Assembly (NCBI RefSeq): GCF_000260965.1
Contig: NC_017856.1
Location: forward strand, 60,001-92,000
DNA from: Methylophaga frappieri
GTDB taxonomy: Bacteria; Pseudomonadota; Gammaproteobacteria; Nitrosococcales; Methylophagaceae
Direction: 5' to 3'
DNA length: 32,000 bases
Made by a program: the position numbers and the translations under genes. The notes beneath the pieces were generated by a model. The model worked only from the letters and a program-made list of their open reading frames with translations, was not told the DNA's origin and made no database searches. Positions 10,152 through 26,057 of the stretch are shown piece by piece; positions within the stretch are counted from its first letter, which is position 1; every line of letters begins with the position of its first letter.

Positions 10152-10570
10152 TTACAGTGCTTGTACTTCAAACACGGCTGAATAGTTGGCACTTCTCTCT
10201 TTAGCAGGGGCTTTGGCATTCTCGTCACTGTATTCCATTTCCAGGTAATACAAGCCCGCCTCTTCAAATGTGATATTGATATTTCCGTCATTATCCGTGC
10301 TGGTTTTAATGGCTTTAGCCTCGTTACGATATTTCTCGCCATCTTTGACAATAACAACATCACCACCGCTGACTGGCTGGCCATTCAGCATGAACTGCAT
10401 TGTCGCCTCTTCGCCGGTATACAGATCATTAGGATGCGTAACCGGGTTTAATTCGATGCCTTTGCCTGTCATTTTGATTTCTGATGGTTTACCGAGGCTG
10501 ACAAAGACTTCAATACGGCGTGAAGAGTCGATAACTCTCAACTCATTGGCCTCTTTGGGTACGGCTTTGT
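10152..10570 (-). pseudogene. DUF4198-family periplasmic protein gene, 5'-truncated by the transposon IR
   Basis: The frame stays open upstream of the track's TTG start, right up to the IR tip at 10571 (...HKAVPKEANELRVIDSS...). Only about 140 C-terminal codons remain. GKGIELNPVTHPNDLYTGEEATMQFMLNGQPVSGGDVVIV...GLYYLEMEY is DUF4198-like from memory. Confidence 0.65.
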
Positions 10571-10612
10571 GGGGTTCTAGGGATTTTCCCCTCTAAAGTA
10601 ACATAAATCGCC
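10571..10612 (+). repeat. Terminal inverted repeat IRL, copy 1
   Basis: GGGGTTCTAGGGATTTTCCCCTCTAAAGTAACATAAATCGCC. The exact reverse complement is at 13736-13777. Confidence 0.95.
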
Positions 10613-10708
10613 ATACTCACCATATTTAAAGGCATACAAAGGTGGGTTACTTCTCCAAAGTATGGCAAATTATGAGGTTAACAACCCCTTAAACTTAATT
10701 TAATTCCT

Positions 10709-13689
10709 ATGGCTATAAAAAACGAACTATCAATTCTTACCAAAGCTGAGCAGCTTGATCTATATTCTCCGCCGCTATTATCACTTGAACAACAACGATT
10801 GTATTTTACGCCAAACGAGATCGAGTTAACAGAGTTGAAAAGTATTCGCCTAAGGAACCACCGATGCTATTTCATTGCGTTATTAGGGGTATTTTTAAGT
10901 CTAAGCCTGTGATTCTTTCACCTAGCTTTAACCTCATCTTTGACGATATGCAGTTTATTTCAACGCAAGTTCAAGGAGGCAAAGGGATCAGGCCTCAGCA
11001 TTAATAAGATGCAGCGTGACCGTATATATCAAAGAATACTGAGGTTATTAAACTATCAGAAATGGGACGAAAGTCTGCACTTTGCGCCGCTGTACGAACA
11101 TCTTGTTATGGTCGGCAAAGCTTGGCTTGAGCCTCGTTATCTATTCGATGCAGCCGCTGAATATCTAGCAACGCATAGAATTGCCATCCCTAAATATACT
11201 GTCTTACAAGCTTATCAGTCGTGTTATCCAACAGGTCAAGAAGGCGTTAAATAATAAGCTTCGTATTCATGTTTCATCTGAACTACACGGATTTCTAAAT
11301 ACTATTATCGATGACAAAGATGGGCTCTCCTTAAGCCAGCTTCGAGCCGGTGCAAAAAGCGTTATGGTGACAGAGCTAAAAAAAGAACTGACGGTGTATC
11401 ATCAGTTACAGCCTTATACAAGACAGATTGATAATGCTGTTAAGGGCTTAGCCTTATCGTCTAAAAACCAACAACACTTCGGTGAAATGGTGGATTATTA
11501 TGGCAGTAAACTAACGCTTTAAGCGTCCACAGCAACACCTATGGTTGCTGTGTTTTCTGACTCAACGCATACGGCAAAGCCTAGAGCGATTGGCTGATGG
11601 GTTTATTCATCATATCCGTAAACAACAAGAAGCTGCGCATGCGTTTGCCCAACAGGCAGTGTTTGACTCATGGAGGTCAGCTGCAGACAATGTCACCAAA
11701 GCCGCAGAATTACTGCATCTGTTTGTTGATGACAGTATCGACGATAATCAACCATTTGCAACGGTTAGGCAACAAGCATTAAGTGTAATGAATAACCAAG
11801 ATATAGAAACGCTATGCCTGTACTTAAAAAAGCAAAAACGCACGGTAGAAGAATATCAATGGCAATATTATGATGATCAAAACGGGTTAATTGAGCAGTT
11901 ATTAAGGCCCGTGTTTCTATGTCTTGAATGCCAAGCAGGTAAAGGCTCAGAAGCATTAGTGACCCAGCTCAAAACCACAAAAACAGAACTATTAGCAGGT
12001 AATACATTGCAAACAATGGATAGTACACTTATCCAACAAAAACATCGTCCATGGTTAATTAACAAGGATGTTGTTCATCCACAGCGATACGAATGGTTGC
12101 TTTACCGTCAACTGGCTTCTCGGCTTAATGGTCGAATTTACTTATCAAACGTCACTAAATATCGTGCGCTAGAAGACGACTTAATTGCATCGTCAATACA
12201 GCCTGATCTATTGGCATCATCAACATTGGAAAAGCTAAAGCAGCCGATTCAGAAGCTACTGCAAGTAAAACAAATACGCTTAACAACATCCCTAGAAGAT
12301 GTTGCTCGTCACATTGATAATGGTGATAACCGCAATGTGATCATGAAGAGCCGAAGTGGCACACGATGGCGACTGCCAGTTAAAGGCTCCCAATCACTTG
12401 TCAACAACCCTTTCTTTAAACAAATGATCCCCGTCAGTATTGCTGATGTGTTGCGTTATGTTGAACAAGAAACCAACTTTATGCAATGCTTCGCACACGT
12501 GCTGCCAATACAAAAACAAGTAGGCGCCAATCAGGATGATTTATTGGCTATTCTAATTGCGAATGCGACACATCGCGGCGTATATGGGATGGCACAAATA
12601 TCTGATCGCAGTTATGAGCATCTAAGCACTATACAAGCTAATTATATTAGGCCTGAAACCTTGCAAGAGGCTAGTGATATCATCAATAACGCAGTAGCGG
12701 CACTCCCTATTTTCCGCCACTATCACATCCAAGAAGACGTCCTGCACGCCAGTACCGATGGGCAAAAATTTGAAACTCACCTTGAGACTTTTAAAACTCG
12801 CTACTCCTCGAAATACTTCGGCACCAACAAAGGTATTACGGCCATGACGTTAGTTGCCAATCATAGTGCGTTAAATGCCCGTATCATAGGATCTAATGAG
12901 CATGAGTCCCATTATATTTACGACTTACTACAATCTAATACTAGTGATCTTAAGCCAGATGTCCTCTCAACCGACACCCATGGTGTTAATCATGTTAATT
13001 ATGCCTTATTGGATTTATGCGGTTATAGTTTTGCGCCTAGGTATGCTCAGTTCACCAGTGTGATCAATGACCTATTTAACGTAACTGAAAGCGACGACGG
13101 AAACACGCATCTGGCGCTGAAAAAGCCGATAAAAATGAATGTGATTGAAGAAGGCTGGCAGGATATTCAGCGTATTGTGTTATCCCTTCAAGAAAAACGC
13201 ACAACACAGGCATTGCTAGTACGCAAATTATCTGGTTATCCATCTAGACACCCTATATTACAAGCATTAACGGAATATAATAGGCTCATCAAAGCCCAAT
13301 ATTTACTTGATTATATTGATGATGCAAGTCTGCGCCAATATGTTCAACGAGCACTGAACCGAGGCGAAGCCTGGCATTTCCTCAGGCGAGCTATTGCATC
13401 GGTCAATCGTGACCAGTTCCGTGGAAAAAACGAATCAGAAATAGTCGTCTGGAACGAGTGTGCCCGTTTGACGGCAAATGCTATTATCTACTTTAACTCG
13501 ATGATCCTAAGTCATCTATTACTGCACTTTGAAGAAGTTGGTGACGAGGAAAAAGCAGCAATAACTCGACAAGTATCACCCGTTGCATGGCAGAACATTA
13601 ATCTGAGCGGCACTTATCAGTTCGCTAGTAACCGCAAACTACCTGATTTACAGGAAATAACTAGGCCTATTGTTGAAAATGAAGTCTAA
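10709..13689 (+). pseudogene. tnpA: Tn3-family transposase TnpA, copy 1, broken into 4 ORFs by frameshifts
   Basis: ORFs 10709-10912, 10940-11254, 11181-11522 and 11545-13689. It has a DUF4158-like N-terminus (SILTKAEQLDLYSPPLLSLEQQRLYFT) and a DDE_Tnp_Tn3-like core (STDTHGVNHVNYALLDLCGYSFAPRYAQF). Confidence 0.9.
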
Positions 13690-13735
13690 AATGAAAGGTA
13701 ACCCAGCTCCACAAGCCATTAACTGCGAGGGTTGT

Positions 13736-13777
13736 GGCGATTTATGTTACTTTAGAGGGGAAAATCCCTAGAACCCC
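13736..13777 (-). repeat. Terminal inverted repeat IRR, copy 1
   Basis: Exact reverse complement of 10571-10612. Confidence 0.95.
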
Positions 13778-13778
13778 A

Positions 13779-14330
13779 TCAACCGGCAAGCTGCTTGATG
13801 CGCTCGGCCAGGCGGCCGAAAGCCTCGTTCACGTATTCCAGCACCTTGGGTTCTGCGCCCTGCGTGCGCAGCGAGTCTTTGAAGGCTTCCAGGTCGGACA
13901 GCCATTGCCGATGCAGGCGGCCCAGCTCGTCGAGCTGAGGCCGGAAGTCTTGGAGACTGCCGCTCGCACGAAACGCCTGGTAGCCACGCTCAAGCGTGGC
14001 CGCCGTGGTCAGCAGTTGCGCGCCCATTTGCTTGTGCTGTTCGGAGAACTCGGCCATGCCGTCATAGGGCCGCGAAGCCTTGCGGCGCTCGGCTTCGGAT
14101 GCCTCTTCCATGATGCGGGCGTAGCGGTAGAACCCTGGGAACTCGCGGGACAGCGCCATGAGCTGCTGATCGGATGTGCCGACCCAAATCCTGTGCAGGT
14201 CAGGCCCGTACCCCATCATGCGATTGATGATGGCATGGGCCTCGCTGACACCCTGGGCGGCAAGCTGCTGCATGTGTTGGTCGATCTTCGCGGCCAGTCG
14301 GCGGAATTCGTTCATGCTCATGTCCGTCAC
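13779..14330 (-). CDS. Hypothetical 183-aa helical protein, third gene of the vapBC cassette
   Basis: It is a GC-rich ORF. Its GTG start overlaps the vapC stop (GTGA at 14327-14330), with an alternative ATG at 14321. Its stop TGA (13779-13781) is 1 nt from the IR tip. I recognise no family. Confidence 0.6.
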   Translation of the reverse strand: MTDMSMNEFRRLAAKIDQHMQQLAAQGVSEAHAIINRMMGYGPDLHRIWVGTSDQQLMALSREFPGFYRYARIMEEASEAERRKASRPYDGMAEFSEQHKQMGAQLLTTAATLERGYQAFRASGSLQDFRPQLDELGRLHRQWLSDLEAFKDSLRTQGAEPKVLEYVNEAFGRLAERIKQLAG

Positions 14331-14722
14331 AAAAGGCGCGTTGATTGCCCTTGCGCCGTGAGAAGTGCCACCGCCTTCTTATCGAAGGAAACGAAGGTTT
14401 CCCCGCCAAGCCAGTTGCCTTCGTAGGCAATGACGCCATCGGCAAAGTCTCCGCCCGCGTCGAGCACCAGCAAGCCAGCCTCCACGGCAGGCCGGTTCAC
14501 TTCCACATTCGCGGCGGCCAGTAGTGCCCGGATCGCGCTGGCCGCGTCGGCTTGCTGGAAGCCGTAGACACGCAGCAGCACCCAAACAAATTCGCATAGG
14601 CACGGCAGCGCGACCGCGATCAACTCGGCGTCGGTCAAGACTGCGGCGGCAACGTCCGCTTGTGCGGGATCGTCACGCACAACCGCACGCACAAGGACGT
14701 TGGTATCGACTGCGACCTTCAT
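14327..14722 (-). CDS. vapC: PIN-domain ribonuclease toxin VapC
   Basis: 131 aa. MKVAVDTNVLVRAVV... gives the first acidic residue in DTN. CEF, DFADGVIA and the C-terminal FVSFDKKA fit the PIN acidic tetrad pattern. ATGA overlaps the upstream antitoxin stop. Confidence 0.88.
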   Translation of the reverse strand: MKVAVDTNVLVRAVVRDDPAQADVAAAVLTDAELIAVALPCLCEFVWVLLRVYGFQQADAASAIRALLAAANVEVNRPAVEAGLLVLDAGGDFADGVIAYEGNWLGGETFVSFDKKAVALLTAQGQSTRLL

Positions 14723-14970
14723 TGCTTACCTGCCCAGCCTTGCGCCGCCGCCTCGTTGATTTCTTCGATGGTGGCAACCTTCTGCGTCTTGCCCGCGAGC
14801 AGGCCGACAAAGCTGGCTATCGTCCCTGCGGGCCGTGCCGCCTTGAGCACGCCCCGACCGTCTGGCAACAAGTCCAGCTCGATCTTGTCGCCTGGCCTGA
14901 TGCCGAGGTGTTGCAGTACGTCCTTCCGAAACGTCACTTGTCCCCGTGCGGTAACGGTCAATGTGGTCAT
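14719..14970 (-). CDS. vapB: AbrB/SpoVT-fold antitoxin VapB
   Basis: MTTLTVTARGQVTFRKDVLQHLGIRPGDKIELDLLPDG is a swapped-hairpin AbrB-type motif. The ATG is at 14970 with SD GAGGG 9 nt upstream. The track's start at 14988 is a TTG. Confidence 0.85.
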   Translation of the reverse strand: MTTLTVTARGQVTFRKDVLQHLGIRPGDKIELDLLPDGRGVLKAARPAGTIASFVGLLAGKTQKVATIEEINEAAAQGWAGKQ

Positions 14971-14999
14971 GGTGGTTTGCCCTCGCAATCAAGGTTGAT

Positions 15000-15041
15000 G
15001 GGGTTCTAGGGATTTTCCCCTCTAAAGTAACATAAATCGCC
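15000..15041 (+). repeat. Terminal inverted repeat IRL, copy 2
   Basis: Identical to 10571-10612. Confidence 0.95.
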
Positions 15042-15137
15042 ATACTCACCATATTTAAAGGCATACAAAGGTGGGTTACTTCTCCAAAGTATGGCAAATT
15101 ATGAGGTTAACAACCCCTTAAACTTAATTTAATTCCT

Positions 15138-18120
15138 ATGGCTATAAAAAACGAACTATCAATTCTTACCAAAGCTGAGCAGCTTGATCTATATTCTCCG
15201 CCGCTATTATCACTTGAACAACAACGATTGTATTTTACGCCAAACGAGATCGAGTTAACAGAGTTGAAAAGTATTCGCCTAAGGAACCACCGATGCTATT
15301 TCATTGCGTTATTAGGGTATTTTAAGTCTAAGCCTGTGATTCTTTCACCTAGCTTTAACCTCATCTTTGACGATATGCAGTTTATTTCAACGCAAGTTCA
15401 AGGAGGCAAAGGGATCAGGCCTTTCAGCATTAATAAGATGCAGCGTGACCGTATATATCAAAGAATACTGAGGTTATTAAACTATCAGAAATGGGACGAA
15501 AGTCTGCACTTTGCGCCGCTGTACGAACATCTTGTTATGGTCGGCAAAGCTTGGCTTGAGCCTCGTTATCTATTCGATGCAGCCGCTGAATATCTAGCAA
15601 CGCATAGAATTGCCATCCCTAAATATACTGTCTTACAAAAGCTTATCAGTCGTGTTATCCAACAGGTCAAGAAGGCGTTAAATAATAAGCTTCGTATTCA
15701 TGTTTCATCTGAACTACACGGATTTCTAAATACTATTATCGATGACAAAGATGGGCTCTCCTTAAGCCAGCTTCGAGCCGGTGCAAAAAGCGTTATGGTG
15801 ACAGAGCTAAAAAGACTGACGGTGTATCATCAGTTACAGCCTTATACAAGACAGATTGATAATGCTGTTAAGGGCTTAGCCTTATCGTACTAAAAACCAA
15901 CAACACTTCGGTGAAATGGTGGATTATTATGGCAGTAAACTAAAACGCTTTAAGCGTCCACAGCAACACCTATGGTTGCTGTGTTTTCTGACTCAACGCA
16001 TACGGCAAAGCCTAGAGCGATTGGCTGATGGGTTTATTCATCATATCCGTAAACAACAAGAAGCTGCGCATGCGTTTGCCCAACAGGCAGTGTTTGACTC
16101 ATGGAGGTCAGCTGCAGACAATGTCACCAAAGCCGCAGAATTACTGCATCTGTTTGTTGATGACAGTATCGACGATAATCAACCATTTGCAACGGTTAGG
16201 CAACAAGCATTAAGTGTAATGAATAACCAAGATATAGAAACGCTATGCCTGTACTTAAAAAAGCAAAAACGCACGGTAGAAGAATATCAATGGCAATATT
16301 ATGATGATCAAAACGGGTTAATTGAGCAGTTATTAAGGCCCGTGTTTCTATGTCTTGAATGCCAAGCAGGTAAAGGCTCAGAAGCATTAGTGACCCAGCT
16401 CAAAACCACAAAAACAGAACTATTAGCAGGTAATACATTGCAAACAATGGATAGTACACTTATCCAACAAAAACATCGTCCATGGTTAATTAACAAGGAT
16501 GTTGTTCATCCACAGCGATACGAATGGTTGCTTTACCGTCAACTGGCTTCTCGGCTTAATGGTCGAATTTACTTATCAAACGTCACTAAATATCGTGCGC
16601 TAGAAGACGACTTAATTGCATCGTCAATACAGCCTGATCTATTGGCATCATCAACATTGGAAAAGCTAAAGCAGCCGATTCAGAAGCTACTGCAAGTAAA
16701 ACAAATACGCTTAACAACATCCCTAGAAGATGTTGCTCGTCACATTGATAATGGTGATAACCGCAATGTGATCATGAAGAGCCGAAGTGGCACACGATGG
16801 CGACTGCCAGTTAAAGGCTCCCAATCACTTGTCAACAACCCTTTCTTTAAACAAATGATCCCCGTCAGTATTGCTGATGTGTTGCGTTATGTTGAACAAG
16901 AAACCAACTTTATGCAATGCTTCGCACACGTGCTGCCAATACAAAAACAAGTAGGCGCCAATCAGGATGATTTATTGGCTATTCTAATTGCGAATGCGAC
17001 ACATCGCGGCGTATATGGGATGGCACAAATATCTGATCGCAGTTATGAGCATCTAAGCACTATACAAGCTAATTATATTAGGCCTGAAACCTTGCAAGAG
17101 GCTAGTGATATCATCAATAACGCAGTAGCGGCACTCCCTATTTTCCGCCACTATCACATCCAAGAAGACGTCCTGCACGCCAGTACCGATGGGCAAAAAT
17201 TTGAAACTCACCTTGAGACTTTTAAAACTCGCTACTCCTCGAAATACTTCGGCACCAACAAAGGTATTACGGCCATGACGTTAGTTGCCAATCATAGTGC
17301 GTTAAATGCCCGTATCATAGGATCTAATGAGCATGAGTCCCATTATATTTACGACTTACTACAATCTAATACTAGTGATCTTAAGCCAGATGTCCTCTCA
17401 ACCGACACCCATGGTGTTAATCATGTTAATTATGCCTTATTGGATTTATGCGGTTATAGTTTTGCGCCTAGGTATGCTCAGTTCACCAGTGTGATCAATG
17501 ACCTATTTAACGTAACTGAAAGCGACGACGGAAACACGCATCTGGCGCTGAAAAAGCCGATAAAAATGAATGTGATTGAAGAAGGCTGGCAGGATATTCA
17601 GCGTATTGTGTTATCCCTTCAAGAAAAACGCACAACACAGGCATTGCTAGTACGCAAATTATCTGGTTATCCATCTAGACACCCTATATTACAAGCATTA
17701 ACGGAATATAATAGGCTCATCAAAGCCCAATATTTACTTGATTATATTGATGATGCAAGTCTGCGCCAATATGTTCAACGAGCACTGAACCGAGGCGAAG
17801 CCTGGCATTTCCTCAGGCGAGCTATTGCATCGGTCAATCGTGACCAGTTCCGTGGAAAAAACGAATCAGAAATAGTCGTCTGGAACGAGTGTGCCCGTTT
17901 GACGGCAAATGCTATTATCTACTTTAACTCGATGATCCTAAGTCATCTATTACTGCACTTTGAAGAAGTTGGTGACGAGGAAAAAGCAGCAATAACTCGA
18001 CAAGTATCACCCGTTGCATGGCAGAACATTAATCTGAGCGGCACTTATCAGTTCGCTAGTAACCGCAAACTACCTGATTTACAGGAAATAACTAGGCCTA
18101 TTGTTGAAAATGAAGTCTAA
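15138..18120 (+). pseudogene. tnpA: Tn3-family transposase TnpA, copy 2, one frameshift (extra A at 15889)
   Basis: ORFs 15138-15893 and 15916-18120 are in frames differing by +1. Deleting the A at 15889 (absent in copy 1) joins them into one reading frame of about 993 aa. Confidence 0.9.
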
Positions 18121-18166
18121 AATGAAAGGTAACCCAGCTCCACAAGCCATTAACTGCGAGGGTTGT

Positions 18167-18208
18167 GGCGATTTATGTTACTTTAGAGGGGAAAATCCCT
18201 AGAACCCC
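18167..18208 (-). repeat. Terminal inverted repeat IRR, copy 2
   Basis: Exact reverse complement of 15000-15041. Confidence 0.95.
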
Positions 18209-19293
18209 AGCCAGGAAAAATCCAGAACGTCTCCGCCGCCATTGAACATAAAGCCAAGGCGCCGATCAGAGATTTTGTTCTCAAGACGGGAAATCATGCG
18301 GGAAAGCTTTCCGTTGAAATCGCCTTGCTTTTCACCACGAGCGCCTGGAACCATCTCTACGTTGATGTCATTCAACCTGCCCATGAGAAAATCTAGTTTG
18401 AAGGGGACCGGGCTATCGACGGTGAAGTGCTTCAGTACATCTGTCTGGCCGCCATCTTCCAGGTATTTTTGTTTCGCCTGATTGATCTCACGCGCCATGA
18501 TCATGGCCTGGTTGGGCGCATTCTGGTCGCTTCGATCAACGAACATGGATACGAGTGCTTCGTACGAAAGTAGCCAGTAAGGCAGGTATAGAACACCGTC
18601 ATCAATGGTGCGTTTAGCCTCAACATCTGCGGGCCCGGCCACCTTGAAGTGCTGAATGCCTGGGTCTACCAATGGTGAGTATTCACCATGAAGATCAAAA
18701 ACAATGGCGTTAGCCGTAGAGAGTCCTGCCATTTGCTCAATAATCTTGGCTGTCGTCCAGGACTTACCTGACCCGGTACTGCCGCCGATGAAGGCGTGAC
18801 GCTGGAAAAACTTATTACCGTTGAGATAGGCAACAGCGTGTTCGTCCAACGTGTATTTGCCCAGCGTCAGGGCATTACCATCTGCTGAGATGCTAGAGAG
18901 AGTCCGCATAAAGCCGGTAAGGTTTTCGCCCTCTAGCGAAAAGCAATTCGCATCAATTTCTGGAACACTTTCCAGAGTGCGGCGAAATACATTTTCTCTT
19001 TCTCCATCACGATCCAGCATCGTGCCAATCAGGGCGATTTTGCACAGGTTCAGTTCGGAGGTCTGCTCGCTGATGCCATCATTTGCAATGTCCTCGATAC
19101 CACGCTTACGGGTCACCTGGGTGATGAGCCCGATGAGATGCTGTCCAGGCCTGCTGCTTTGGAGCACGGCCAGATGGTTGACTTGCAACCTTTTGAGTTG
19201 GTCGATATTTTCTACGTCCACGATGACGTTTGTCGTATCGACGGAGGCCACCTTTCCAAGAGCGTCTTCATCCCTAAAATTAAATATCGGCAT
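18199..19293 (-). pseudogene. herA: HerA-like (DUF87) ATPase of a SIR2-HerA defence pair, 3'-truncated by the transposon IR
   Basis: The Walker A motif is FIGGSTGSGKSWT. About 361 native codons end at the IR tip (18208/18209). The last residues and the TAG stop (18199-18201) are supplied by IR sequence. As far as I recall, full-length HerA partners of SIR2 are considerably longer. Confidence 0.8.
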
Positions 19294-19302
19294 ATCTTCT
19301 TC

Positions 19303-20343
19303 CTACATAATGAGTGACAGGTAACCCTCAAGACTCCATAAGTTTTTTTCAACAGTTACAGGAGTCTTATCTAAAGAGGAGTAGATGATGGACTGGTCGT
19401 CTGTAGCACCCCGCTCTATTGCTAGGCAATTTTTCGCCTTGCCGTCCGTAATTAGTTTTCTGGCCGCATCTGAAAGCGCATATGTAATAATCGTGATCGG
19501 GGTATTCAGACGCTGACATCTCGCCATGAGTTTTGGCTGAATGTGCTCGTCATTGAAGCCGTATCCAATGCAAAGGTAAGAGTTCGCCGCAGTAATGGCT
19601 TGGTCTGCATTGTTGATGATTGAGCGGTATGGTTCTAAATGTGTCGTTTGATATTTCTGAGTGCCTGGAGTCACTATTTCCGGCTTGTAGTTGACAGGGA
19701 TACCTTGAATATTTGAAAGAGCCACAATGTCTTCGAGCGGCGATTTAAACCAGTCCAGCGAGCCGTGAACCTTCCAGATATTGACTCTGCGGGCAGAATT
19801 TATCTCATTCGGTGCAGCCAGTTGTCGAAAAAAACCGTGCGTGAAGCCCGTATAATGGTGAATTCGCTCCTGATCACAGGCGTATTCGGCGAGTCTGTCG
19901 TAATTCGTAGTAACAATGTTTAATTTGGTAAGACTGCTTTTGAACATGTGGCTCAACAGTCGGCTAAGCGGAAAAATCGCTTGGTTCTGAAGGCTTCGGT
20001 TGAAAATGTGAATGTCTTCAGCGTTGATGAGCGACCAGGTTGCTCTGATAATTCTGGAAGTTAGCTCTTCTGTAACAGCCACCTGATGCAGCGCCGACTC
20101 CAGATCAACGCCAGCATTCAAGACCTCACAGAATTTCTCCCAGACGTCTATCTCTCCAGCGGATAATCCAGAAATGTCGGTATTTTCAGTCAAATGCTTC
20201 GCAAGCGCCCACATGCCAGAAATGCCATGGGCAGCCGATGCACCGCTGCCCAGGATGATAAGGGGAGCCTTGTTGTAATAATCCTGTGCTTGTTTTTGGT
20301 AGTTCACATCTGACATATCATCTTCGCCATTAATTCTCTGCAT
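19303..20343 (-). CDS. SIR2-family (SIR2_2-like) NAD+-utilising effector protein
   Basis: 346 aa. It has PLIILGSGASAAHGISGMW (a GAGxS-like NAD-binding start), IVTTNYDRLAEYA (catalytic Asn region), NIWKVHGSLDWF (catalytic His) and CIGYGFNDEHI. It ends 9 nt upstream of herA. The alternative start at 20316 gives MSDVNY. Confidence 0.85.
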   Translation of the reverse strand: MQRINGEDDMSDVNYQKQAQDYYNKAPLIILGSGASAAHGISGMWALAKHLTENTDISGLSAGEIDVWEKFCEVLNAGVDLESALHQVAVTEELTSRIIRATWSLINAEDIHIFNRSLQNQAIFPLSRLLSHMFKSSLTKLNIVTTNYDRLAEYACDQERIHHYTGFTHGFFRQLAAPNEINSARRVNIWKVHGSLDWFKSPLEDIVALSNIQGIPVNYKPEIVTPGTQKYQTTHLEPYRSIINNADQAITAANSYLCIGYGFNDEHIQPKLMARCQRLNTPITIITYALSDAARKLITDGKAKNCLAIERGATDDQSIIYSSLDKTPVTVEKNLWSLEGYLSLIM

Positions 20344-20432
20344 CCTTCTTGCTGGATTTTCAGCACATCGATAACTTTTACTCGCTCTAAAAGTCTGTTA
20401 ATGGGGTCTTTGACCTCATAATTATCAGGCAT

Positions 20433-20467
20433 AAAAACTAATCGTGAATGATTCACGATTAGTTTTT
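20433..20467. terminator. Perfect 17-bp-arm palindrome with flanking A5/T5 runs (bidirectional terminator-like)
   Basis: AAAAACTAATCGTGAAT-G-ATTCACGATTAGTTTTT. It lies between the SDR gene 3' end (20700) and the SIR2 gene start. Confidence 0.6.
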
Positions 20468-20699
20468 GCTATTTGGGAGAGATATAAATGTGGGCTGGGC
20501 TTCCATGTCTTGCTCAATCAAGTCAGATGGTTTTGAGTTTACCCACAATCGATATGGTTATACAAAGTTTTGTGATGTATTGGTTTTTAGATTCAGAATA
20601 CTCAAGTTATCTTTAGATAGGTTCATCTTTATCGTGTGCCTATGCCCTACCTTGCGTCGCTGAGACCTATCGGGCTTATGACTTACCAAACTTTTAAGA

Positions 20700-22817: not shown

Positions 22818-23426
22818 CTAACTTCCGTGGCGCAAAACTTGAAAATCAATTGGCTTGTAGCAAAAGTTGTTTGACTGCCCAGCGGAGCATGCAGTCATCG
22901 CCACCACGAGTGGCATCTCTGCTCGCAGGCGAACGAAATCCCCTGCTTTGCTGAGTGGCGGAAGCACGCTGAACTCACCAGTTTTGGCATCTACCGCAAC
23001 ATACATAAAAACGTTAAAAGCGATGGGAATGCGATCGACTCCGATATTGTAAGGTGCCAGTGCTGCCACAAGATTTCCCTCACAACCCGGCCGTCCTTCA
23101 TTCTCACCGTAGATGATCTTGAAGGTATCTTTTGAACAAGGTGTTAAGGTAAAGTCGTGTCGGCCACAGGTGTCTTCCATGATAGTGAACATGGGGCGGC
23201 TACGATTCGAGTACAACACGTCGCCTGTTGTAAGCCATAGACGTGAGGCATAATCGAGCGAACGACCTGAGGACAAATACTCTTCATGATTGGTTTGCTC
23301 AAAAGCGACCAGGTCACTTACTTGTTGACCATCGGGATCGATAATTACCAGCTCATCACCCGTGGCAAGTTCGACCGACTGTGCAGAGCAAGGCTGAATT
23401 CTAATTGTCTCTAAGTCCGTATTCAT
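22818..23426 (-). CDS. DUF1989 (urea-carboxylase-associated) family protein
   Basis: 202 aa. IQPCSAQSVELATGDELVIIDPDGQQVSDLVAF...TPCSKDTFKIIYG...GCEGNL...NVFMYV fits DUF1989 from memory. Its start overlaps the upstream gene stop by 4 nt. Confidence 0.75.
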   Translation of the reverse strand: MNTDLETIRIQPCSAQSVELATGDELVIIDPDGQQVSDLVAFEQTNHEEYLSSGRSLDYASRLWLTTGDVLYSNRSRPMFTIMEDTCGRHDFTLTPCSKDTFKIIYGENEGRPGCEGNLVAALAPYNIGVDRIPIAFNVFMYVAVDAKTGEFSVLPPLSKAGDFVRLRAEMPLVVAMTACSAGQSNNFCYKPIDFQVLRHGS

Positions 23427-24139
23427 AACTTCTCCTTAAAATCAAAAGGACACTGCCAGTCCTTCTCTACCTCACGACCACTATATTGCCTGGCCTCACT
23501 TGCCTCCCCGAAATCTGCCAGATTGGGATTGATCGACCCTTGCAATTCGATATCGCGGGAACGAGTAGCCGCTTGCATTTTCTCAAAACGTCCGTCTTCT
23601 CTGAGCCTCTCGAACTGACGGTGAGAATTGAACACCAATACCGGACGCTTGAAACGTCTGGCAAGTCGCGAAGCATTTGGATGAAGCCCAATCAGGAAGA
23701 ACGGATGTCCCGACATGCTCAGGCTAAATCGTGAGCTTTCTGTATCATTACTGACATCGTCGGCTGGTAAATTGCCTGCCAAAACATCAAGTTTGTGGAT
23801 TCGCCACAATTGCGACCACATTAATGACTCAAAACGATGCTCGCTCATATTGAACGGTCCACGGAATATTGCGACAAAAGAATGCACTATGTCGCTGTCG
23901 GACACGTTTGTCTCGATCATGTCAACAAATTCAGAAAGCCCATCTGCAATGGCTTGGTCATTGTCGGGATCGCCCAATGTTCCGAACTCATGCGTTTCAA
24001 TCGAGTCATGGGCTAACGCTGACTTTGCACCCACACAGGGAAAGGCATTGTCATCCAGAAACGCTAAAAAGCTCTCGCCTATTTCTGTAATGGGCTTTTG
24101 ATTTTTTTCAATTGTTTGAGAATATTCGTTACGTATCAT
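23423..24139 (-). CDS. YqcI/YcgG-family protein (family includes heme-dependent N-hydroxylases)
   Basis: The FPCVGAKSA motif near the N-terminus and HPFFLIGLHPNASRLARRF...LVFN are family hallmarks as I remember them. I prefer the ATG at 24139; the track's start at 24181 is a GTG. Confidence 0.75.
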   Translation of the reverse strand: MIRNEYSQTIEKNQKPITEIGESFLAFLDDNAFPCVGAKSALAHDSIETHEFGTLGDPDNDQAIADGLSEFVDMIETNVSDSDIVHSFVAIFRGPFNMSEHRFESLMWSQLWRIHKLDVLAGNLPADDVSNDTESSRFSLSMSGHPFFLIGLHPNASRLARRFKRPVLVFNSHRQFERLREDGRFEKMQAATRSRDIELQGSINPNLADFGEASEARQYSGREVEKDWQCPFDFKEKL

Positions 24140-24818
24140 TAGTTTATCTTTAATTCGCAAATTAATAACAGCGAAAGACACTTATAGCCACAGTGGTGAA
24201 GGTATCTTAGGCATTACTTGAGTTTGAAATACAAACCCGCGAATAAATACTAACGTTCGTTGCGAAGATAGTATGTACGGTTCCTAACCCAGCTAGTCGA
24301 TATTTCCCCTTAATTTTTTGGTTATAAGCAAGGGGCTGGTAACCGTCATAAAGAGTTTGAATTAGACGTAAATCGATTGATGCTCGATATGTTTATTTAC
24401 AGGTTATTTTTGATTTTATTGCAGATTTTTATTAACTGCTTGACCTCAGTTTCATTCAAGCCAGTAGCACACAATGCCAGCTTGGCAATGTTTTCTCCTT
24501 CATCAGCAAACTCACGTCCCTATTTTTTATGACATTGCCATTGTTAATGCCAATTAACCTTTCTGCCAATATCTACCCACTTTAATTACCGAAACACCCT
24601 ATGAAGGTCGTCAGCTAGCCATTAAATTGGTGCGAAAAACCATTGGAACAATTCAAACCGATCCTGCTGCAAAACATCGTGTAAGAGCGAAGTATGCTGA
24701 AGATCCTGCACTATTAATGGTTGCTGCTGAGCTTGTGGCAATAGAATTTAAAACAATAGCCATTTGCCAACGATTATTGGCGTAAATAAGCAGCTAAACA
24801 AACAGCGTAGTTATGCCG

Positions 24819-26021
24819 TTAACCTGGTTTACCATCGGGTCTGGGTGTCGTTAAAATCGGAAAATAAAGAATGATATACAGTAAGTAAGCAGTAGCCCAT
24901 GCAAGGACGCTAAACCATAACCAAAAAGAAATTTGCGTTGGTAACAGCCAAATCATCAGTGTTCGAATTAAGCCGACGGCAATAATGAAAATAAATGCTA
25001 ATGAGATTAAACGTTTTGGCGTTAATGATCTGCCGCTGTGTCCTAGTGATACGCGAGACATCATACTGAGAATCATTGTGCCCATGGCACCCGCGGTTAA
25101 TGCATGTAAGGCAACACTATAGGGCATGTCGAGACCGGCATAATATGCTGAAAACATAATCAGTCCCAGCGGGATGAACCAATAGCCTATATGCAAAGAC
25201 CAAAGCAGTGGCACGCGGAAGGTGACCCAAATTTTCCATCTAAACCCACGAATAAATACCAGTATTGCCGAAACAGCGAACAACAAACTCAGAAGATTAG
25301 ATGGAATCAATTTTGTCAGCATTAAAAAATGTAAGGCAAATAGCAGCCAAACACTTGTAAGTGCAGTTTTATCCAACCAGGCAATGTTGTTTACTTTGGA
25401 TGTTTGAGTACCGTTTGCGGTAAACATTGGAATAACACGACCACCAATCACTGTCATTAATAATGTGATCAACAATACGGCACTAAGGCTGCCAGTTTGT
25501 TGAATATCCGGGCGTTCCATCACCAGCCCTGCGTACATTACTGCATTGCAGATAGTCAGTAATAACAGTACTGGAATAAAAAATAAGCTTTTAGTTTGTT
25601 TAGCTCGCAAAATGGGGTTCGCCAATAAATAGGCGCTTACCGGTAAAAAACTTAGATCAATCGCTATCACTAACCATAAAGGTAACCCAGCACCAAATAG
25701 CAATGCCAGCCTTCCAGCCAGCCATAACATGACAATTACTAACAGTGTTTTGCCATGTGGTGCTCGCTGACCTGTCCAGCTCTGCACTGCGGTTAATAAA
25801 AATCCAATCACTATCGCTGCAACATAGCCGAAGATCATTTCGTGGCTATGCCAGAACAGTTGATTGCCAACAAACTGGAAGTTGATATGACCAGATATGA
25901 TCAAGCCCCACAACAACATGGCAATCACACTGAAGGCTGCCCCAAACAGAAATAGCGGTCTAAACGCCTGACGAAATAAGGGCACAATGGCTTTTTCGCT
26001 TTCTGATAATTCTGGCGTCAT
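24819..26021 (-). CDS. nnrS: NnrS-family heme/copper membrane protein (NO-stress associated)
   Basis: 400 aa and polytopic. The N-terminus PLFRQAFRPLFLFGAAFSVIAMLLWGL with the following His-containing helices is typical of NnrS. It lies 36 nt downstream of nirK. Confidence 0.85.
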   Translation of the reverse strand: MTPELSESEKAIVPLFRQAFRPLFLFGAAFSVIAMLLWGLIISGHINFQFVGNQLFWHSHEMIFGYVAAIVIGFLLTAVQSWTGQRAPHGKTLLVIVMLWLAGRLALLFGAGLPLWLVIAIDLSFLPVSAYLLANPILRAKQTKSLFFIPVLLLLTICNAVMYAGLVMERPDIQQTGSLSAVLLITLLMTVIGGRVIPMFTANGTQTSKVNNIAWLDKTALTSVWLLFALHFLMLTKLIPSNLLSLLFAVSAILVFIRGFRWKIWVTFRVPLLWSLHIGYWFIPLGLIMFSAYYAGLDMPYSVALHALTAGAMGTMILSMMSRVSLGHSGRSLTPKRLISLAFIFIIAVGLIRTLMIWLLPTQISFWLWFSVLAWATAYLLYIILYFPILTTPRPDGKPG

Positions 26022-26057
26022 AGATACAAATCCAATTTTAAATTTACAGCATTCACA

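Follow-up and report, generated by a model that had tools for sequence, protein, structure and literature searches.

A SIR2-HerA gene pair related to known anti-phage systems has lost the end of its ATPase gene at the tip of an insertion sequence. In the window, by which we mean the whole 32-kb stretch of DNA that was analysed, sir2 is intact, and herA keeps only its first 362 of 575 codons, after which the right inverted repeat (IR) of a copy of ISKox2 takes over and supplies two codons and a stop. We hold it probable, at roughly 85%, that the locus represents what is left, in a Methylophaga-like marine gammaproteobacterium, of an anti-phage operon gained by horizontal transfer and killed by this truncation; by analogy with the studied relatives, the system most likely no longer defends. 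Truncation of a defence operon by an insertion sequence is an ordinary kind of event. The features at the break are the following.

20317..20523, minus strand: region upstream of the sir2-herA module, shared with an intact locus on a metagenomic contig (L005)
19303..20316, minus strand: sir2, an intact SIR2-family effector of 337 aa, from PADLOC, Pfam and homologue lengths
18199..19293, minus strand: herA', a 364-aa ORF for a truncated HerA ATPase, from PADLOC, tblastn and the comparison with L005
15000..18208, plus strand: ISKox2 copy 2, a Tn3-family insertion sequence with IRs at 15000-15037 and 18171-18208 and a tnpA gene; its right IR tip breaks herA

A reading made from the sequence alone had recognised a SIR2-like protein with TTNYD and VHGS regions, followed 9 nt later by a DUF87/HerA-like ATPase, and both genes lie where it placed them, with PADLOC and Pfam in agreement. 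The two genes are on the minus strand and are separated by nucleotides 19294-19302. PADLOC model PDLC04087 matches the sir2 product over the full model (E=1.7e-144), and Pfam SIR2_2 matches it as well. In the 337-aa numbering, TTNYD occupies residues 136-140 and VHGS residues 183-186, with N138, D140 and H184 as the catalytic-motif residues; TTNYD and HGS align with the same conserved motifs in the solved chain 8yhx_G, and chain 8w9l was also matched. The sir2 ORF runs 19303..20343 (minus strand), and an alternative upstream ATG at 20343 would yield a protein of 346 aa. Since SIR2 is 337 aa long in 107 of the 120 homologues, translation probably begins at the ATG at 20316. The protein shares 98% amino acid identity with the SIR2 of an intact locus. 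L270 is the only one of its residues that none of the 120 homologues has, a count not exceeding that of the homologues themselves, and a comparison with these homologues revealed no excess of unique or non-conservative residues indicative of relaxed selection on sir2.

The pair is somewhat richer in GC than its surroundings, as had been observed, at 48.4% versus 43-44% in the native flanks and 41% in the insertion sequence. Homology to L005 extends to 20523 and homology to two Methylophaga genomes (L007 and L008) stops at 20684, placing the junction of the sir2-herA module with native Methylophaga-like DNA between 20524 and 20683. The region 20317..20523 is presumed to hold the promoter of the module; a single, weak sigma-70-like match is present at 20448-20421, not above what is expected by chance.

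The truncation of herA is evident from several comparisons. PADLOC model PDLC04105 matches herA' at E=2.7e-132 over model positions 1-363 of 576 only, and Pfam DUF87 is also matched. DNA derived from herA ends at 18209, and the 38-nt inverted repeat of ISKox2 copy 2 (GGGGTTCTAGGG...) finishes at 18208, breaking the gene. The frame ends in ...DFSWL and then reads G-F-stop from the repeat, with the TAG at 18199-18201. The earlier count of about 361 codons before the frame enters the IR is thus essentially exact, the retained residues being 1-362. When a 575-aa HerA homologue was used as a tblastn query, residues 1-362 were covered at 94% identity, and residues 363-575 had no match anywhere in the 32-kb window, in keeping with the expectation that the C-terminal part of the ATPase is missing. 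The retained portion comprises the N-terminal beta-barrel, the first RecA segment including Walker A (GGSTGSGKS, residues 170-178), and the helical bundle. The last 37% of HerA is gone: the RecA core has lost its second half, with Walker B (LLCDEAH, 422-428) and the later conserved motifs EGRKYG (454-459) and SQRPS (466-470), and the C-terminal region is missing as well. Alignment with full-length HerA therefore sets the cut, at about residue 362, ahead of Walker B. In an alignment to solved HerA, the break falls at about residue 392 of the Paenibacillus protein, in which the helical bundle spans aa 228-396 and the second RecA segment aa 397-575 (PMC11472057). The break thus comes where the helical bundle finishes and the second RecA segment is about to begin.

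The possibility that HerA is naturally short or split in this lineage would be compatible with the good match of PADLOC's short HerA models (214-400 positions) to herA', and with a few HerA matches of 361-411 aa in the representative library. However, the three such matches that we inspected stop inside conserved motifs and are fragments, and the last two codons and stop of herA' derive from the IS repeat. All 120 of the closest HerA homologues are 573-578 aa long, bearing out the statement in the sequence-only reading that such partners are much longer than 361 aa. Additionally, in the 50%-identity representative library, every HerA match that covers query residues 1-362 and exceeds about 540 aa extends beyond the break. 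A naturally short HerA is exceedingly improbable.

The search for intact versions of the locus, which the first reading had proposed, was productive. Orthologues are carried by the Pseudomonas aeruginosa plasmid pF045_1, by Serratia plasmids (e.g. NC_002523.5, S. entomophila) and by L005; they show 84-99% nucleotide identity and have the 9-nt gap and the 337-aa SIR2 of the window, but, unlike the window, encode a complete HerA of 575-577 aa. L005 is 98.7% identical in nucleotide sequence up to 18209, after which its herA goes on where the window has the IR. Over HerA residues 1-361, the two differ by 13 synonymous and 3 non-synonymous changes. Because neither sir2 nor the retained part of herA shows decay, the truncation was probably recent in evolutionary terms.

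The junction of herA' with the IR was found, 100% identical, in two outside contigs, which indicates that it is not an artefact of the present assembly. Both contigs end a short way upstream of where herA starts. One derives from the metatranscriptome of a marine denitrifying reactor fed with methanol; it was assembled from reads not mapping to GP59 or JAM1, and it suggests that the remnant is still transcribed. An origin of the window in M. nitratireducenticrescens GP59 was rejected on account of those reads and because the nirK of GP59, which encodes 363 aa, adjoins norD and is situated between two Mu prophages (PMC5918138), has a context unlike that in the window. Exact-protein look-ups with sir2 (both starts), NirK, NnrS and two small genes nearby gave no match. 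A scan of genome contigs for the same junction found none. The reciprocal junction (IR followed by TGGCT and the herA 3' part) had no match among metagenome contigs, but neither had the positive control, the known junction of herA' with the IR, so that this collection evidently does not contain the contig in question and its negative carries no weight.

With respect to known systems, the locus has the SIR2 with its catalytic Asn/Asp and His motifs and an adjacent herA gene on the same strand. Walker B and everything beyond it are gone from HerA, however, and the locus is therefore a remnant rather than a complete member of the SIR2-HerA group. The systems of Paenibacillus sp. 453MF, E. coli (Nezha), S. 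aureus and E. coli types I-III consist of these two genes, arranged in this order. As in those systems, SIR2 has the N/D/H motifs, and HerA the barrel, Walker A and the helical-bundle insertion; the window HerA differs from theirs in having no residues 363-575. PADLOC SIR2 and HerA models match the pair at E=1e-130 to 1e-157. The studied systems are distant relatives: with the window HerA as query, E is 1e-42 for Paenibacillus HerA and 4e-29 for Nezha HerA, and the window SIR2 reaches only about 1e-7 against solved SIR2 chains. By sequence, the HerA structures of the HerA-DUF4297 systems 9c1m (E=4e-73) and 8xau (1e-65) are among the nearest that have been solved; the partner effector in them is a DUF4297 nuclease, whereas the partner here is SIR2. 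No DNA match was present in 5,426 complete E. coli genomes, in near and distant search modes.

The initial reading had offered two outcomes, that the system is inactivated or that SIR2 is released from HerA control. Without HerA, the SIR2 proteins of the S. aureus, Paenibacillus and E. coli systems show minimal NADase activity or none, and their activation requires HerA (PMC11514289, PMC11472057); furthermore, swapping HerA abolishes defence (PMC13434337). As SIR2 alone is inactive in three other systems, a dead system is far more likely than a released SIR2, and of the two outcomes inactivation is the one to be retained. The HerA region that was lost is, in solved relatives, the part that holds the hexamers together. 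The truncated protein would be expected neither to hydrolyse ATP nor to form a hexamer that could dock onto and activate the SIR2 ring, and SIR2 would consequently remain auto-inhibited, with loss of defence.

That the truncation instead yields a partly active or deregulated system is very unlikely. In such a system SIR2 would be freed, or HerA(1-362) would dock through its beta-barrel to give an altered complex, for example one with no ATP checkpoint or one that is dominant-negative. The S. aureus complex lends this some substance, as the N-terminal beta-barrel and the N-terminal helix of HerA contact SIR2 there (PMC11514289) and both are retained in the window; by this analogy the herA' product may still bind SIR2 to some extent. 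The integrity of sir2 and the appearance of the remnant in a metatranscriptome assembly are in line with it as well. Against it, SIR2 was inactive or minimally active by itself in all three studied systems, and half of the RecA core is gone, making it unlikely that the fragment folds or hexamerises. Toxicity would also be expected of a constitutive NADase, but the lineage has survived and its junction recurs in separate data sets. The specific proposal that transcribed SIR2 and HerA(1-362), with the barrel and no ATPase site, still assemble as an altered module is a long shot; were it correct, that module could be a checkpoint-free NADase or a dominant-negative decoy interfering with related HerA-based systems. 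Loss of defence remains our preferred reading, and its bearing is largely on annotation, beyond which it has little significance. Defence finders that score single genes would call SIR2-HerA here because both PADLOC models match strongly, and the locus should be flagged as a pseudogenised remnant. The cut falls exactly where the helical bundle meets the second RecA segment and also offers a ready-made construct for testing which parts of HerA are needed for SIR2 activation.

The insertion sequence that breaks herA is one of two copies that, with the DNA between them, form a 7.6-kb block. The remaining features of this block and its outer flank are the following.

10152..10570, minus strand: 5'-truncated DUF4198 gene that abuts the left end of ISKox2 copy 1 and matches Pfam DUF4198 positions 95-209 of 209 only
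10571..13777, plus strand: ISKox2 copy 1, with IRs at 10571-10608 and 13740-13777, in direct orientation relative to copy 2
13778..14999, minus strand: GC-rich (62%) internal fragment, 1222 bp, of a different Tn3-family transposon, between the two ISKox2 copies
13779-14315, minus strand: hypothetical gene on the 1222-bp fragment
14327-14722, minus strand: vapC, PIN toxin (PIN domain E=2e-6)
14719-14970, minus strand: vapB, AbrB-type antitoxin, from its translation and the RefSeq annotation of identical DNA

ISKox2 is a 3.2-kb Tn3-family insertion sequence with tnpA as its sole gene. Copy 2 is 99.9% identical over 3209 bp to annotated ISKox2 on many plasmids, and its tnpA matches both Pfam DUF4158 and DDE_Tnp_Tn3. 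The 38-bp IR, starting GGGG, occurs in four exact copies in the window against none expected. The window copies share the IRs and the single tnpA with annotated ISKox2, but differ from it in that tnpA is frameshifted and target duplications are missing. In copy 2, small indels split tnpA into ORFs at 15138-15893 and 15916-18120, and in copy 1 the gene is disrupted by four small indels, so that neither copy encodes an intact Tn3-type transposase in one frame. Relative to the reference, the indels in both copies are of 1-3 nt and lie within the first 950 bp; they may be genuine mutations or may reflect errors of the consensus in repeats.

Simple insertion of the element into herA does not account for this arrangement. 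No 5-bp target-site duplication was found at any of the four IS ends (copy 1 is flanked by TTTGT and ATCAA, copy 2 by TTGAT and AGCCA), nor for the outer pair (TTTGT at 10566-70 versus AGCCA at 18209-13). Moreover, the 3' part of herA is absent, and the outer flank of the block opposite herA' is the truncated, unrelated DUF4198 gene. The lack of target duplications at the four ends, together with the truncated gene in the outer flank, points to an IS-mediated deletion. We propose that the break arose through IS activity with an accompanying or subsequent deletion, in which the 3' end of herA and some neighbouring DNA were probably removed, whether by recombination of IS copies with each other or by intramolecular replicative transposition. 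Synteny gave no size for such a deletion: the genomes L007 and L008 share only SDR, NnrS and NirK, and the left half of the window was not found within 10 kb of these genes.

Alternatively, herA might have been interrupted and rearranged, its 3' 213 codons lying elsewhere beside another ISKox2 end after simple insertion and an inversion or translocation between IS copies, or the window might contain a mis-join across the 3.2-kb repeats. ISKox2 is multi-copy in several marine genomes, and the confinement of indels to the IS copies hints at an imperfect consensus in repeats. Yet all four IS ends in the window lack HerA C-terminal coding sequence beside them, and the genes on the two outer flanks are both truncated and share a strand, the pattern expected of a co-linear deletion. 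We therefore regard a split herA as unlikely, and even a rearranged gene would still be split and non-functional.

The sequence-only reading had also proposed that the inactivating element brings its own toxin-antitoxin module, one abortive-infection-type module thereby replacing another. The first part fails in that ISKox2 carries only tnpA and vapBC resides on the fragment of a different transposon. The vapB and vapC genes overlap by 4 nt, and a PIN toxin preceded by an AbrB/MazE-type antitoxin identifies the pair as a type II VapBC module. Functional replacement of SIR2-HerA by the ISKox2-vapBC-ISKox2 block is highly improbable: both genes are complete and 100% identical to widespread copies, but the pair belongs to a captured internal transposon fragment in which no more than 29 bp of the native res/promoter sequence ahead of vapB is left, and such modules in Tn3-family elements have been interpreted as transposition and maintenance machinery (PMC7157771). 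The replacement is conjectural. A simple scan of the 29 bp detected no promoter-like site, and no record among 72,556 plasmids covered at least 80% of the whole ISKox2-vapBC-ISKox2 unit.

The deletion reading leaves a clean, datable case in which ISKox2, known mainly from clinical resistance plasmids, has reworked the defence islet of a marine methylotroph from the environment and, at the same time, has carried in a piece of a Pseudomonas/Xanthomonas-type transposon that bears a toxin-antitoxin pair. The two direct ISKox2 copies bracket a passenger segment in the manner of IS-flanked pseudo-compound transposons. The vapB-vapC-hypothetical segment is 100% identical to that of the transposon in Rms149, where the order is tnpA, hypothetical gene, vapC, vapB, res, tnpR, and this transposon is one of those Tn3-family elements in which a toxin-antitoxin pair has res/tnpR on one side and tnpA on the other (Lima-Mendez et al. 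2020, PMC7157771); in contrast to such a transposon, the window keeps the internal 1222 bp only, without tnpA, tnpR, the res site or an IR. This 1222-bp fragment is 100% identical in more than 150 plasmid records.

The SIR2-like and HerA-like pair proposed by the sequence-only reading is present, with the 9-nt spacing and motifs described for it. The genes, and the insertion sequences beside them, lie as follows in window coordinates:

19303..20343, minus strand: sir2, 346-aa ORF
18199..19293, minus strand: herA', the retained 5' part of herA, 364-aa ORF
15000-18208: ISKox2 copy 2, direct to copy 1
10571-13777: ISKox2 copy 1, direct to copy 2

In profile searches the SIR2 ORF matched PADLOC model PDLC04087 end to end (E=1.7e-144) as well as Pfam SIR2_2, with TTNYD at residues 136-140 and VHGS at residues 183-186. 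The HerA ORF matched PADLOC HerA models and Pfam DUF87, and covered only positions 1-363 of the 576 in the full-length model PDLC04105. Because SIR2 is 337 aa long in 107 of 120 homologues, the ATG at 20316 is more likely to be the sir2 start than that at 20343. The pair has a GC content of 48.4%, against 43-44% in the native flanks, in keeping with the GC enrichment noticed earlier.

The herA frame enters the tip of an inverted repeat at 18208 and stops at a TAG inside it, as had been read from the sequence; its HerA part comprises 362 codons. The 38-nt sequence GGGGTTCTAGGGATTTTCCCCTCTAAAGTAACATAAAT occurs as four exact copies in the window, where none is expected by chance, and one of these has its end at 18208. 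On the minus strand, herA ending in GATTTTTCCTGGCT directly abuts GGGGTTCTAG, and the repeat contributes the last base of codon 362 followed by Gly, Phe and TAG. The closest intact locus, on the 4.7-kb public contig L005, is 98.7% identical to the window from 20523 down to 18209, where it goes on from TGGCT into TGAAAAGTTC and the remainder of herA. With a full-length homologue as the tblastn query, HerA residues 1-362 were found in the window at 94% identity and residues 363-575 nowhere in the 32 kb, which upholds the claim that the C-terminal part of the ATPase is missing; that a rearrangement moved this part elsewhere in the genome, beyond the reach of a 32-kb search, is in our view unlikely. 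Contig scans directed at such a rearrangement recovered nothing, but neither did they recover their positive control, the known junction. Locating the break relative to Walker B, a check proposed earlier, gave the following order of residues in full-length HerA:

170-178: Walker A (GGSTGSGKS), kept
after 362: break, between DFSWL and EK
422-428: Walker B (LLCDEAH)
454-459: EGRKYG
466-470: SQRPS
up to 575: C-terminus

Residue 362 aligns with approximately chain residue 392 of the Paenibacillus HerA structure 8wiv, in which the helical bundle spans aa 228-396 and the second RecA segment aa 397-575 (PMC11472057). The truncated product thus retains the beta-barrel, the helical bundle and that half of the RecA core which contains Walker A. 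It is without the remaining half of the ATPase core and without the C-terminal part, which in the S. aureus and Sulfolobus enzymes is described as a brace joining adjacent subunits (PMC11514289).

HerA partners are, as the sequence-only reading stated, much longer than 361 aa: all 120 of the closest proteins measure 573-578 aa. Complete herA genes were found on L005, P. aeruginosa pF045_1 and Serratia plasmids, the latter two encoding HerA of 575-577 aa, separated as in the window by 9 nt from the gene for a 337-aa SIR2. When 1.84 billion cluster representatives were searched exhaustively, all matches covering query residues 1-362 and longer than ~540 aa extended well beyond the break, and the three short matches inspected (P0241, P0261 and P0262; 361-411 aa) terminate within conserved stretches and are gene fragments. 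Natural HerA partners ending near residue 361, which would have refuted the sequence-only reading, thus did not appear among these proteins, and a naturally short HerA is very unlikely.

The 38-nt repeat is that of ISKox2, a Tn3-family insertion sequence of 3.2 kb whose sole gene encodes a transposase with DUF4158 and DDE_Tnp_Tn3 domains. Annotated copies on many enterobacterial, Vibrio/Aliivibrio and Alteromonas plasmids match it at 99.9% identity. Compared with reference ISKox2, the window copies show no changes other than 1-3-nt indels (four in copy 1, two in copy 2, none shared), all within the first 950 bp (10571-11520; 15000-15945), and have zero independent substitutions in their 3.2 kb. 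The indels shift the reading frame of both transposase genes, and reflect either repeat-confined consensus errors or independent inactivation of the copies. The 1222-bp segment between them (62% GC) is 100% identical to one on >150 plasmids, and on Rms149 it lies inside a Tn3-family transposon ordered tnpA, hypothetical, vapC, vapB, res, tnpR, an arrangement discussed by Lima-Mendez et al. (PMC7157771). Of that transposon the window has just the three small genes and, upstream of vapB, 29 bp; the res region, the expected promoter site, is absent, and expression of the pair is uncertain. Thus vapBC is a captured passenger between two insertion sequences and not part of the element that cut herA. 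The earlier proposal that the inactivating element brought its own toxin-antitoxin module thus fails, since ISKox2 carries a transposase alone.

The 5-mers at the four IS ends are TTTGT, ATCAA, TTGAT and AGCCA, and their comparison revealed no target-site duplication for either copy or for the 7.6-kb block. On its left the block is flanked by a DUF4198 gene that shares the strand of herA and is missing approximately the first 94 positions of the model. Two same-strand truncated genes without a duplication fit the pattern of IS-mediated adjacent deletion or of recombination between the two direct IS copies; either route could have made the break, and would have taken out the 3' end of herA together with all DNA as far as the middle of the DUF4198 gene. 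The insertions bracketing the vapBC fragment share a 5-mer in opposite orientation (ATCAA on the 13778-13783 side, TTGAT on the 14994-14999 side), so that the inverted-repeat match runs 6 nt past the IS tips; this could reflect target preference or chance.

Two outside contigs encode the exact 364-aa product, including its repeat-encoded tail:

L003: window 18162-19347
L004: window 18181-19319

Both match the window at 100% identity through the junction, which is therefore not an artefact of the window's assembly. One, JGI Ga0510010_004923, comes from Trinity metatranscriptome assemblies of a methanol-fed marine denitrifying reactor, assembled from reads not mapping to Methylophaga nitratireducenticrescens JAM1, GP59 or Hyphomicrobium NL23 (PMC12530212). 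The remnant is therefore probably still transcribed into the IS end, the RNA origin being as given in that report and DNA carry-over being possible. Both contigs end just within the sir2 3' end, at 26-54 nt upstream of where herA starts, which may reflect a second sir2 context, filtering of reads against reference genomes, or a transcript 5' end.

S. aureus Sir2 lacks NADase activity by itself and gains it when HerA binds (PMC11514289), Paenibacillus and E. coli SIR2 alone are minimally active, all activities being turned on by complex formation (PMC11472057), and exchanging HerA between E. coli subtypes abolishes protection (PMC13434337). By extension from these systems, the remnant should be inactive and its SIR2 harmless rather than unleashed. 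The window SIR2 is distant from the studied systems, matching solved SIR2 chains at only E ~1e-7, and the nearest HerAs with solved structures (9c1m, 8xau) belong to HerA-DUF4297 systems, whereas the partner here is SIR2. SIR2 has one residue absent from 120 homologues, no more than typical homologues show, and between the kept herA part and L005 there are 13 synonymous and 3 non-synonymous differences. Neither comparison reveals sequence decay, suggesting either a recent truncation or genes still under constraint. Of the sequence-only reading, then, the identity of the pair and its truncation stand, and inactivation is the expected outcome; its view of the element, the release of SIR2 and the replacement of one abortive-infection module by another are wrong or unsupported. 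That an insertion sequence pseudogenises a defence operon is common and well understood, and both the SIR2-HerA system and ISKox2 are already catalogued; per-gene HMM matches would nonetheless over-call a functional system at this locus.

Products encoded in the right flank are an SDR-type protein, NnrS, NirK, NorR and Hmp. The first three are 87-93% identical to proteins of two uncultured Methylophaga genomes with conserved order, and sir2-herA is absent within 10 kb downstream of the SDR gene in both. Homology stops at 20684 for Methylophaga and at 20523 for L005, so the defence islet starts just downstream of the SDR gene. The sir2-herA module is widespread, occurring on Pseudomonas and Serratia plasmids and in Shewanella, Aeromonas and other bacteria.

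The nitric-oxide/nitrite cluster (24819-31122) comprises nnrS, nirK (437-aa ORF), norR and hmp. Its nirK-nnrS part shares 84.5% identity with a plasmid segment of Methylophaga pinxianii. The nirK context of M. nitratireducenticrescens GP59 is different (PMC5918138), so the window is not from that strain. At 22818-24181 (minus strand), a GntA-like gene, scoring 293 bits for the NCBIfam guanitoxin N-hydroxylase family (cutoff 145), shares 4 nt with a gene whose product matches the NCBIfam urea-amidolyase-associated families UAAP1 and UAAP2, in what looks like a small two-gene unit. On the minus strand at 5059-7320, a 753-aa protein that has bacterial collagen as its middle region and contains long internal repeats (15-nt period at 6728-7117; 177-nt period at 5128-5706) adjoins a ShlB/FhaC-type two-partner-secretion transporter (3274-4971, minus strand). 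A tRNA-Ser(TGA) gene (563-652, plus strand) lies at the left end of a block of genes for two-component systems and secretion, and may mark a genomic-island boundary.
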